The notes under the pieces: model-generated | What the model was told of the DNA's origin: nothing | What the model saw: the letters and a program-made list of their open reading frames with translations, nothing else | The model's database searches: none | Assembly (NCBI GenBank): GCA_002422025.1 | Contig: DISV01000004.1 | Span: 102,578-166,577 of the forward strand | Reading direction: 5' to 3' | Length of the DNA: 64,000 bases | Source of the DNA: Patescibacteria group bacterium UBA6201 | Lineage (GTDB): Bacteria; Patescibacteriota; Minisyncoccia; Phycocordibacterales; UBA918 | Part shown: piece by piece, positions 29,053-60,017 of the stretch | How the letters are laid out: each line of letters opens with the position of its first letter | How positions within the stretch are numbered: position 1 is the stretch's first letter | Position numbers and translations under genes: made by a program

Positions 29053-29140
29053 ACATCCACAGTATAGAGCATGTGTAATACTCTGTCTCCGCGAACAAAA
29101 CAGAATCACCCAACACTTGTGTGTTGGGCTGATTGTTTTG

Positions 29141-29227
29141 CGGAGGATGTGAGATTCGAACTCACGGGCAGTTTTACCCGCCGGCGGTTTAGTAAACCGC
29201 TGGTTTAAACCACTCACCCAATCCTCC
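29141..29227 (-). tRNA. Type II (long variable arm) Ser-like tRNA with apparent anticodon ACU
   Basis: Acceptor GGAGGAT/ATCCTCC, 3-bp D-stem GGT/ACC, anticodon arm GCGGT-TTACTAA-ACCGC, variable stem GGCGG/CTGCC, T-arm GTGAG-TTCGAAT-CTCAC. Confidence 0.5.
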
Positions 29228-29299
29228 ATATATTCGCTTCACTTAACTCCAACCGAGAACAGTGGCGACATTATAATCAGTTGAGGTGAAAAGTCTATA

Positions 29300-29481
29300 C
29301 ACGGGGACGGAAGGAGGGATTCAGTCACGAATAATTTTGTAATACAAAATTTTCTCGACCCCAGCTCGCTGGCCTGCGGCATCGCTCCGCTTTTCGAATC
29401 CCTCCGTAAAGCAAAGCAGTTTACTTTACTCCTTTTCCGCCCAATAAAATAACCACCCTAGTGGGTGGTATTTTATACGGG
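29300..29481 (-). repeat. tRNA-associated repeat also present at the tRNA-Asp locus, plus partial and inverted copies of the tRNA-Ser 3' end
   Basis: aaaattttctcgaccccagctcgctggcctgcggcatcgctccg matches 5234-5277 with 3 mismatches; gacggaaggagggattc is a copy of the tRNA 3' end. Confidence 0.55.
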
Positions 29482-29568
29482 CGGAAAAGGAGGGATTCGA
29501 ACCCTCGAGGGTTTTGACACCCTACCTCCTTAGCAAGGAGGCACATTCGACCACTCTGACACTTTTCC
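29482..29568 (-). tRNA. tRNA-Ser (anticodon GCU), type II
   Basis: Acceptor GGAAAAG/CTTTTCC, anticodon arm CCTCC-TTGCTAA-GGAGG, long variable arm, T-arm GAGGG-TTCGAAT-CCCTC. Confidence 0.7.
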
Positions 29569-29690
29569 AATGTGCAGTACATATTGCCCTATTTAAGGCA
29601 TCTTTTCAAATGTTTATATAACTTCTGCATCTTTTCAAAGTTTCACTTATATGCGATGCTTGAATTAGCGAAAGGGAGGAGGTGTACAAA

Positions 29691-34792: not shown

Positions 34793-34866
34793 CCGCCCTT
34801 AGCTCAGTTGGTTAGAGCACAGAGCTTATACCTCTGGGGTCCTTGGTTCGAGTCCAAGAGGGCGGA
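34793..34866 (+). tRNA. tRNA-Ile (anticodon UAU)
   Basis: Acceptor CCGCCCT/AGGGCGG, D-arm TAGCTCAGTTGGTTAGAGC, anticodon arm CAGAG-CTTATAC-CTCTG, T-arm CTTGG-TTCGAGT-CCAAG. Confidence 0.7.
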
Positions 34867-34892
34867 CGGAATTTTTAATTTTCTTATACCTG

Positions 34893-38578: not shown

Positions 38579-38955
38579 GGGGATGACAGGCATCGACGGT
38601 TTGAATCGTTCATCCACGCAATGCCGAAATTGGAATCAATTCGTTAAAAGGTTCCATCTGTATCTGCAAACAAAGCAATACCAAGTCCGTTCTCATACGG
38701 ATTCGCCTTCGCTCGAGCGTAAGTTCGCGTAGGTGACGCTAACCTGCCCCACGTCTAATAAGGTTGTGTTAGTGGAATAGCATTGGACTCTAGATAATTG
38801 ATTTGTTCCATTAATTATCCAAATTGTTAGGAACTGCTCGTGTTGAGATTTTGCCAAATTTTTCACTTACCACGCTAAGATTTAAATCTGGCTATGCATT
38901 GTAGAAGTGTATGGACGACCATTCTCGGACGTGGATTCAATTTCCACCATCTCCA
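38579..38955 (+). ncRNA. ssrA: tmRNA (ssrA), standard one-piece
   Basis: 5' GGGGATGACAGGCATCGACGG (acceptor strand plus conserved GGC-ATCGACGG), 3' T-arm GTGGA-TTCAATT-TCCAC, acceptor CATCTCC, discriminator A; internal tag ORF starting GCAAAC and ending ...FAFARA-TAA; adjacent to smpB. Confidence 0.75.
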
Positions 38956-39159
38956 CGAGTACAAAAATCCGCTCGCACGAAAGTGCGGGCGATTTTTGTT
39001 CGTGGAGATGGTGAGAAAGCAAACTGTTTTGCTTTCGTGAAATTGAATCGGGCGGAGCGTTGTGTTTTTGCTCTTACTTAGGCAAAAACACCGCGAGCCG
39101 GGCCTGCAAGCACTTAGTATTTTAAGTGCGGAGCACGAATAAATACTTAGTGACTTGAT

Positions 39160-59197: not shown

Positions 59198-59596
59198 ATA
59201 GATAAAACGCTAAGGCTGGTCTGAAATAAGGAAGTTTGTTTAAAATCAATGAGATGCAAGGCGGATGAGGAAAATAATGCGAGGTGAACTTAACGTTCAG
59301 AGAGCTTTATTTTCCGAAATCCAACGCAGCAGATCGTGATTTTAAACTGACTTCTAAGTCAGAAGCCCGTGTGGAAGAAGGTAACGGCCTACCCCACACG
59401 AGTTCCCGACAAGTAGTGATGAACCTGTGCCGACCCGCCCTGCCAGGGGCTTTCGGGCATCAGTTCGGAACGGGGGCTATAGTACGGGATTGTGTATAAA
59501 AAGTCAACAACCTACTAACCAACGGCCTACAACTTTTCGATTGCCAGCATGATATCTTTATAACAGACAGAATAGATGCCAACAGAGGAGCGAAAA

Positions 59597-59815
59597 ATGG
59601 CACCAAAAACAAAACGTCTGAGCTTGGACAAAAAGTGTAAGATTACCCAACAACTGAGCGCACCCAGAAGCAGTGTCAGACAACTGGCCGATTGGCATCG
59701 TCGCGACGGTGAAGGTCCCGTTCCTGAAGTGGTAAAAAAGGCGGTGGAACGATACCGCACGATTTCACCTGAAATCAGGACAAAAGGCAGGCTCATAATC
59801 AGCCGACATAAAGAC
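59597..59815 (+). CDS. Hypothetical 72-aa HTH-like protein (transposase N-terminal-like) inserted between rpsS and rplB
   Basis: SD agaGGAGcgaaaaATG; MAPKTKRLSLDKKCKITQQLSAPRSSVRQLADWHRR...; hairpin terminator at 59840-59873. Confidence 0.4.
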
Positions 59816-59884
59816 TAGCCAGTAGATTGGCCCACAACGCAAAGCGCCGGACAATTTGTCCGGCGCTTTATACGTTGTATTTAC

Positions 59885-60017
59885 AAGAAACTTAAAACTT
59901 TCTAAATGAGATGAAGTTGCGTTTGCTGGAGGGAGGAGCTGCGAGCGAGCCGTATTTAACATACGGTGACGAGCAGTCCGACTGAAGCAAATGCAAATTC
60001 GCTCATTTAGGAATGTT
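59885..60017. repeat. Dispersed repeat (Q family) upstream of rplB
   Basis: gagatgaagttgcgtttgctggagggagg...gagccgtatttaacatacggtgacgag...cgactgaagcaaatgcaaattcgc. Confidence 0.55.

Follow-up and report, generated by a model that had tools for sequence, protein, structure and literature searches.

The whole stretch of DNA analysed here, called the window (64,000 nt), contains nine RNA genes according to ARAGORN, and two of them, tRNA-Ser(ACT) and tRNA-Ser(GCT), lie close together on the minus strand. The first of these was placed by ARAGORN at 29140-29227, and its anticodon, ACU, is complementary to the Ser codon AGU. The features of the locus are the following:

29141..29227, minus strand: tRNA-Ser(ACU) gene, type II (ARAGORN, Rfam RF00005, minus-strand reading, 12-species alignment)
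29479..29569, minus strand: tRNA-Ser(GCU) gene, the canonical AGY reader, upstream of the ACU gene and in the same orientation (ARAGORN, Rfam)
29270..29297, minus strand: candidate sigma-70-like promoter, TAGACT-16 nt-TATAAT (consensus match 10/12)
29108..29129, minus strand: terminator-like hairpin with 9 pairs and a T-rich tail (promoter/terminator scan)
29452..29469, minus strand: terminator-like hairpin directly 3' of tRNA-Ser(GCU) (promoter/terminator scan)

Read on the minus strand, the ACU gene folds into a regular cloverleaf, with a 7-bp acceptor stem (GGAGGAT/ATCCTCC), a 3-bp D-stem (GGT/ACC), a 5-bp anticodon stem (GCGGT/ACCGC), a long variable arm with a 5-bp stem (GGCGG/CTGCC) and a canonical T-arm (GTGAG-TTCGAAT-CTCAC). 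G18-G19 are canonical as well, the discriminator is G73, and CCA is not encoded. The 7-nt anticodon loop, TTACTAA, consists of U32 and U33, the anticodon A34-C35-U36, and A37 and A38. G73 and the pairs G1-C72, G2-C71 and A3-U70 are serine identity elements for E. coli SerRS, whereas tRNAs for Leu and Tyr have A73. All of these elements are invariant in 12 of the 12 species aligned below, and on their strength tRNA-Ser(ACU) would be expected to accept serine.

The initial annotation of this DNA, made from the letters alone, had described the same Ser-type cloverleaf with its 3-bp D-stem, 5-bp variable stem and good T-arm, as well as the ACU anticodon, the TTACTAA loop and the coordinates 29141-29227; ARAGORN, Rfam and the minus-strand reading agree with this description, to which only the strand had to be added. 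It had also suggested a covariance-model score as a check, and that score was not low: the Rfam tRNA model RF00005 gave 54.4 bits (E=6e-9) on 29141-29227, against a gathering score of 29. Its remark that ACU is abnormal for bacteria is shared by reviews (Ehrlich et al.), in which the Ser/Arg box is said to be without A34 everywhere. By every criterion that can be applied to sequence, tRNA-Ser(ACU) is a real and functional gene, and an unusual one.

The neighbouring tRNA-Ser(GCU), which scored 53.4 bits with RF00005, has the loop TTGCTAA and is the normal tRNA that the annotation had seen about 340 nt away. The distance from start to start is ~340 nt, and a spacer of 251 nt separates tRNA-Ser(GCU) from the downstream ACU gene. 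The same order, GCU and then ACU, recurs in relatives, with spacers down to 22-46 nt (22 nt in L024 and 46 nt in L005). In the window, the promoter candidate ends ~43 nt upstream of the 5' end of tRNA-Ser(ACU), and a terminator-like hairpin begins ~11 nt past its 3' end, an arrangement from which a mature tRNA-Ser(ACU) would be expected to be expressed. The other hairpin, directly after tRNA-Ser(GCU), suggests that the two Ser tRNAs would be transcribed as separate units in this genome.

The neighbouring genes encode a membrane protein, a DUF2585 protein, malic enzyme and RecG, with recG 2 kb away. No integrase or phage genes were found among the neighbours flanking tRNA-Ser(ACU), and no Fem/MprF-type gene adjoins it. 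The GCU-ACU pair stands alone, the next tRNA being 5 kb off, and so does not form part of a dense array.

The spacer itself carries fragments of its upstream gene. A direct 25-nt copy of the tRNA-Ser(GCU) 3' end, 76% identical, occurs at 29298-29322, just upstream of the ACU promoter candidate; an inverted 13-nt copy of the T-loop and stem of the same tRNA lies at 29393-29405; and a 30-nt inverted repeat (29429-29492) takes in the tRNA-Ser(GCU) 3' end and its terminator. Similar partial copies of tRNA-Ser(GCU) were seen in L003, L023 and L026, and they are absent where the two genes abut. These fragments could be left over from a duplicated tRNA or from an att site. The idea of a large island with tRNA-end repeats at its borders was also considered and rejected, as no second tRNA-end repeat was found elsewhere in the window.

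tRNA-Ser(ACU) in Paceibacteria and in viral tRNA arrays

A scan for RecG in one genome per GTDB species yielded 58 related loci, nearly all labelled Patescibacteria, Paceibacteria, Nomurabacteria or Kaiserbacteria. ARAGORN found tRNA-Ser(ACT) near recG in 11 of the 58, at RecG identities from 93% down to 57%, and the gene usually sits directly beside tRNA-Ser(GCT). With the window included there are 12 species with ACU, and the GCU gene is kept in 10 of them.

An alignment of tRNA-Ser(ACU) from these 12 species showed standard pairs in 300 of 300 stem cells and an anticodon loop, TTACTAA, that is invariant. Both sides had changed in 14 of the 25 pairs, and covarying pairs make up 4 of 5 in the variable stem and 2 of 3 in the D-stem. 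None of 500 shuffles reached the observed values for pairing and covariation, and slid controls fell to 32-52% pairing. Mean pairwise identity is 0.83 for Ser(ACU) against 0.78 for the neighbouring Ser(GCU), and the divergence of each tracks that of RecG to a similar extent (rho 0.40 for ACU and 0.36 for GCU). By these measures tRNA-Ser(ACU) is conserved at least as well as the essential GCU tRNA, and the alignment indicates that purifying selection maintains it in many lineages.

On the RecG tree, species with the ACU gene are spread over the ingroup and include L043 and L033 on a deep branch; in the outgroup loci, the regions fetched did not contain the gene. An ancestral gene that was lost repeatedly would account for this pattern. 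In other words, tRNA-Ser(ACU) was probably present in the ancestor of a Paceibacteria clade of Nomurabacteria- and Kaiserbacteria-like organisms and was lost in some lineages.

Other origins were considered and set aside. A recent duplication of the adjacent GCU gene was rejected, the two genes of the window being only ~60-70% identical and their bodies differing throughout. Horizontal transfer among Paceibacteria left no clear signal; ACU identity follows RecG identity just as GCU identity does. In two species a Ser(CGA) tRNA stands in place of Ser(ACU) beside Ser(GCU) (L006:7026-7114 and L031:6647-6735). Descent from this tRNA of the same slot was dropped as an explanation, since the D-arm and anticodon arm of the ACU tRNA match the GCU type.

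Metagenomes were scanned with a pattern that covers the D-loop and the anticodon arm and leaves position 34 open (N). It matched at least 107 ordinary G34 Ser(GCU) tRNAs, from which it follows that the ACU tRNA has a GCU-type body, and it added at least 7 further A34 copies in metagenome contigs.

When A was fixed at position 34, a complete scan of IMG/VR returned 111 viral contigs (L181-L291), all called Ser(ACT) by ARAGORN and comprising 64 distinct sequences. At least five tRNAs occur in 85 of these 111 loci, as in the array Lys(UUU)-Glu(UUC)-Ile(UAU)-Ser(ACU)-Asn(GUU)-Gln(UUG)-Thr(UGU)-Arg(UCU). Arg(UCU) is also carried by 53 of the 111, and Ser(GCU) by only 5, Ser(ACU) usually being the sole AGY reader of the array. 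Twelve arrays combine Ser(ACU) with Arg(ACG). Three viral arrays carry Arg(GCG) along with Ser(ACU), which may hint at hosts without TadA. A PHROG scan of ten proteins beside viral arrays gave matches that are weakly diagnostic (e.g., RNA ligase and methyltransferases), and the viral label therefore rests on IMG/VR and on array architecture. Seven isolate phages with close homologues of the environmental ACU tRNAs were also checked; six carry GCU, UGA or CGA, and ACU occurs in one alone, the Xanthomonas jumbo phage XaC1 (OR258281.1, 305983-306070; L295:301-388), where the Ser(ACT) gene is annotated just as tRNA-Ser. This combination of an ACU anticodon with a Ser body of GCU type is common in putative phage tRNA arrays.

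These arrays raise the question of whether the gene of the window is itself the cargo of a phage or mobile element, captured beside tRNA-Ser(GCU) and serving in phage-host conflict (as a back-up against nucleases, or left as the remnant of an element) rather than in optimising translation. A similar body with the same anticodon does occur in the 111 IMG/VR contigs, mostly in arrays, and in XaC1, and Ser(ACU) is listed in ICE-borne tRNA arrays of Acidithiobacillus (PMC4758250). Presence of the gene among close relatives is patchy, and the partial copies of the tRNA-Ser(GCU) 3' end in the spacer resemble att remnants. Viral ACU copies reach 81% identity to the window tRNA, against 74% for the closest Ser tRNA with another anticodon in that sample, but these figures are biased, as the sample was picked by a pattern derived from the window tRNA itself, and a phage link is for this reason a possibility and not a result. 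The flanks free of integrase and phage genes, the lack of a second tRNA-end repeat elsewhere in the window, and a divergence that tracks RecG as that of the GCU gene does, pointing to mainly vertical descent, all speak against capture, and we regard it as unlikely.

Proposed decoding of AGU and the probable state of position 34

The most plausible reading is that tRNA-Ser(ACU) is a functional accessory Ser tRNA, with an unmodified A34, that reads AGU beside tRNA-Ser(GCU) under the standard code, and this is probably what the gene does. Charged with serine and with its A34 left as it is, the tRNA would read AGU through a Watson-Crick A34:U3 pair, and its decoding would be confined to that codon. 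The adjacent tRNA-Ser(GCU) would cover AGC, along with AGU through wobble. The retention of GCU beside ACU in 10 of the 12 species fits a tRNA that does not cover AGC. The initial annotation had offered three explanations, namely a pseudo-tRNA produced by a G34-to-A change, an inosine-34 tRNA that could read AGA as Ser, and an assembly error. None of them holds, and an AGU-only reader with unmodified A34 was missing from its list.

ACU tRNAs have been tried in E. coli. An orthogonal ACU tRNA read AGU there with a U:C discrimination of at least 95:5, its reading of AGA was undetectable and that of AGG slight, and it stayed undeaminated even though E. coli has TadA (PMC11066159). Overexpressed Ser-tRNA(ACU) was neutral to beneficial in the same host, with low predicted mistranslation (bioRxiv 10.64898/2026.05.15.725136).

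Codon usage offers another view of the proposed role. The window contains 230 AGT, 98 AGC, 106 AGA and 58 AGG codons, and AGU is the preferred AGY codon of the genome. The fractions of U-ending codons in highly expressed genes and in other genes compare as follows:

Asn: 0.36 in highly expressed genes, 0.58 in other genes
His: 0.27 in highly expressed genes, 0.50 in other genes
Tyr: 0.41 in highly expressed genes, 0.56 in other genes
Phe: 0.45 in highly expressed genes, 0.65 in other genes
Ser (AGY): 0.67 in highly expressed genes, 0.71 in other genes

In the highly expressed set, made up of ribosomal-protein and elongation-factor genes, the boxes that G34 tRNAs read (the split boxes of Asn, His, Tyr and Phe) move to C-ending codons, whereas Ser AGY stays rich in AGU, a comparison that for serine involves only 54 AGY codons. 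Across loci, the AGU fraction is 0.65 where the tRNA is present and 0.55 where it is not (p=0.01, by a statistic that ignores phylogeny). The lowest values of AGU/(AGU+AGC) among crown-group loci, 0.28 and 0.40, belong to L006 and L031, the species with Ser(CGA) in the slot. The sister species L004 and L027 have the same AGU bias and lack tRNA-Ser(ACU) at the locus, which implies that any benefit is small. Evidently the benefit is modest and the gene dispensable.

It is conceivable that A34 is instead converted to inosine or otherwise modified, so that the tRNA would read AGU, AGC and, weakly, AGA, creating low-level Ser/Arg ambiguity without formal reassignment. The loop shares U33-A34-C35 and A37-A38 with tRNA-Arg(ACG), the substrate of TadA; A-to-I conversion has been inferred for one split-box A34 tRNA of E. 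coli, Phe-AAA (bioRxiv 10.64898/2026.05.15.725136); and there are the viral arrays that combine Ser(ACU) with Arg(ACG). The loop of the TadA substrate, however, reads C32 U33 A34 C35 G36 A37 A38, and that of Ser(ACU) has U32 and U36 instead and does not match. Nor do the NNU, NNC and NNA codons of this box specify one amino acid, AGU and AGC being Ser and AGA being Arg.

The enzyme may be lacking as well. It has been reported that CPR bacteria have no tRNA-Arg(ACG) and rely on GCG (PMC8629427). In five outgroup Patescibacteria loci (L047, L049, L050, L054 and L057) a tRNA-Arg(GCG) was observed beside Ser tRNAs, in agreement with the report that, in the candidate phyla radiation, Arg(GCG) has taken the place of Arg(ACG)/TadA. 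A search for a tadA-like deaminase, proposed in the initial annotation, found no HAE...PCxxC motif in the window or in loci L001-L060, which represent a small part of each genome. No Arg tRNA occurs in the window or its flanks, and extension of the contig in search of tRNA-Arg or tadA brought only a tRNA-Gln and ribosomal genes in the stretch added. Considering also that E. coli TadA leaves an ACU tRNA unmodified (PMC11066159), that AGA stands normally at conserved Arg positions (see below), and that GCU is so regularly kept next to ACU, modification of A34 appears quite unlikely. For the 12 viral arrays that carry both Ser(ACU) and Arg(ACG), the hosts probably have TadA, and inosine should therefore not be dismissed everywhere.

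More doubtful still is the proposal that A34 is partly converted, to inosine or otherwise, or that it superwobbles, with low-level insertion of serine at the Arg codons AGA and AGG and the ambiguity tolerated or regulated. If true, this would mean that a free-living bacterial lineage and many phages decode ambiguously, with misreading of a few per cent at most.

Meaning of the AGN codons and integrity of the gene

A role outside the ribosome might be imagined for tRNA-Ser(ACU), for example as a serine donor in cell-envelope or lipid aminoacylation, where the anticodon would be irrelevant. The redundancy of the gene with tRNA-Ser(GCU) and its dispensability in some relatives would suit such a role. 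An irrelevant anticodon should drift, though, and the anticodon loop is invariant; the canonical G18-G19 and the T-loop TTCGAAT are unlike those of known non-proteinogenic tRNAs; and no Fem/MprF-type gene adjoins the gene. Such a role is very improbable.

Equally improbable is a non-functional relic, the pseudo-tRNA that the initial annotation derived from a G34A mutation. A single mutation does separate A34 from the normal G34, the body resembles that of GCU tRNAs in general, and the N34 pattern met far more G34 than A34 tRNAs in metagenomes (at least 107 against at least 7). A relic would hardly show an invariant loop, full pairing and 14 covarying pairs over 12 species, conservation at least equal to that of the GCU tRNA, and an Rfam score as high as its neighbour's. 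Its identity to the adjacent GCU gene, with differences throughout the body, is also too low for a simple G34A copy, and the same anticodon with compensatory stem changes is found in at least 12 species.

The meaning of AGA and AGG was examined directly. Window proteins were aligned to related loci by tblastn, and the residues opposite each window codon were tallied. Opposite AGA, the aligned residues were R in 34-40%, K in 23-25% and S in 6%, the last being the background level; opposite AGG they were R in 40% and K in 20%; and opposite AGT they were S in 52%. The tally was unchanged once subject AGR codons were left out. In conserved columns, meaning those with 8 or more orthologues and a consensus of at least 70%, window AGA met R eight times, K once and S never (n=9), window AGG met R in 3 of 3, and window AGT met S in 5 of 9, the other four being four different residues. 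The share of AGA and AGG among Arg codons is equal in loci with and without tRNA-Ser(ACU). The metagenome locus L100 has a tRNA-Arg(UCU) gene as well, 100 nt upstream of Ser(ACU). The code is the standard one, both AGA and AGG stay Arg, and full reassignment is excluded.

The idea that AGA, or AGA and AGG, had passed from Arg to Ser with tRNA-Ser(ACU) as decoder has in its favour the anticodon alone, which in an inosine-34 form could pair with AGA. Window AGA stands opposite Arg or Lys, with Ser at background, and at conserved positions AGA and AGG meet Arg; the unchanged use of AGA and AGG and the Arg(UCU) gene adjoining Ser(ACU) in L100 lead to the same rejection, and the tallies against the 58 related loci rule the candidate out. 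The inosine-34 option of the initial annotation, with AGA read as Ser, fails on these columns, which hold no Ser, and on the reported lack of tRNA-Arg(ACG) in CPR; its own suggested check, AGA and AGG at conserved positions, returned Arg in 8 of 9 and 3 of 3. Reassignment is hardly credible after this. Invertebrate and other mitochondrial codes in which AGA and AGG mean Ser likewise involve a Ser tRNA of the AGN box, but there AGR stands at Ser positions, whereas in the window genome it stands at Arg positions. Those mitochondrial codes are decoded by a GCU or UCU tRNA that carries modifications.

An assembly or sequencing error at A34, for which nothing speaks except the rarity of the anticodon, has practically no chance of being right: the RecG-bearing contigs of two assemblies, ENA MEGAHIT ERZ27315056 and Logan SRR943318, carry an identical tRNA (the latter contig matching the window at 100% identity over 10,218 nt), and the same A34 recurs in 11 other species, at least 7 metagenome contigs and 111 viral contigs.

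Comparison with known A34 tRNAs, and other features of the window

The gene of the window is a Ser isoacceptor with an anticodon that was thought not to exist in nature. A 2026 preprint repeated the absence of A34, describing the ANN anticodons that it tested as absent across bacteria (bioRxiv 10.64898/2026.05.15.725136), and the absence of A34 from split boxes has been used, both in reviews and in that study, as evidence of ancient and strong selection against unmodified A34. Ser(ACU) has been listed incidentally for ICE-borne tRNA arrays of Acidithiobacillus (PMC4758250) and for the chlorovirus ATCV-1 and SAG viruses (PMC4810235, PMC7589089). Apart from such incidental listings, the searchable literature held no report of a conserved chromosomal bacterial tRNA-Ser(ACU) or of its prevalence in phage arrays. 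These copies, together with that of XaC1, have the same anticodon and isotype as the window gene, but they are mobile or viral cargo, listed without comment, whereas the window gene is chromosomal, syntenic and kept by a clade.

Compared with canonical bacterial tRNA-Ser(GCU), the ACU tRNA shares the type II long arm, the 3-bp D-stem, G73 and C35-U36-A37-A38. It differs in having A34 and not G34, by which wobble reading of AGC would be lost, and it is added alongside GCU and does not replace it. With tRNA-Arg(ACG), the one standard bacterial A34 tRNA, which TadA converts to ICG, it has U33, A34, C35 and A37-A38 in common; tRNA-Arg(ACG) serves a four-codon box with G36 and C32, whereas tRNA-Ser(ACU) belongs to a split box with U36 and U32. 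That system is, moreover, reportedly missing in CPR (PMC8629427), and E. coli TadA does not act on ACU (PMC11066159).

Natural A34 also occurs in Mycoplasma tRNA-Thr(AGU) and in tRNA-Leu(AAG) of some Firmicutes, in some cases without inosine in reduced genomes. Those tRNAs read family boxes, where superwobble is harmless, whereas in the split box of ACU a misreading would put Ser in place of Arg. The engineered ACU tRNAs of E. coli have the same anticodon and are AGU-specific, free of inosine and of low fitness cost (PMC11066159; bioRxiv 10.64898/2026.05.15.725136), but they are artificial, made from the body of an archaeal Tyr tRNA or by mutating a Ser gene of E. coli, whereas the window gene is natural and conserved.

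The gene is a natural counter-example to the universal absence of split-box A34: it is chromosomal and syntenic, and purifying selection has preserved it in a whole bacterial clade, though with losses. More than 100 putative phage tRNA arrays share its anticodon, as does the culturable phage XaC1. The question of the missing ANN tRNAs could therefore be approached by experiment with natural molecules: is A34 bare, and how is misreading of AGA and AGG avoided? For annotation pipelines, such genes should be flagged neither as pseudogenes nor as a sign of recoding, and an AGU-specific Ser decoder belongs in models of codon and tRNA adaptation for Patescibacteria and for phages.

Several other features of the window and its relatives were seen along the way. 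A standard tmRNA lies at 38579-38956 on the plus strand, beside smpB, with the tag peptide ANKAIPSPFSYGFAFARA and nothing unusual about it. A tRNA-Ile(UAU) occurs at 34793-34867 (plus strand), downstream of recG, and also in about 40 of the 58 related loci (L003-L060); it is nearly universal in the Paceibacteria clade and absent from the outgroup loci, and in many viral arrays Ile(UAU) adjoins Ser(ACU). The UAU anticodon has been listed as normally missing in prokaryotes. Its presence implies that AUA would be decoded without the usual lysidine-modified tRNA-Ile(CAU).

Within the ribosomal-protein operon, a gap of 820 nt (59198-60017) separates rplB from rpsS, genes that normally abut. The ENA assembly breaks inside this gap, with two contigs ending at ~59512 and ~59891, and an Rfam search of the gap gave nothing significant, only weak, chance-level matches to a palindromic hairpin at ~59832-59880. 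Just past the right end of the window (L302:7536-10000), rpsJ (S10) and rplC (L3), which are normally adjacent, are separated by two inserted methyltransferase genes, of which the first named type is SpoU/TrmH and the other SAM-dependent.
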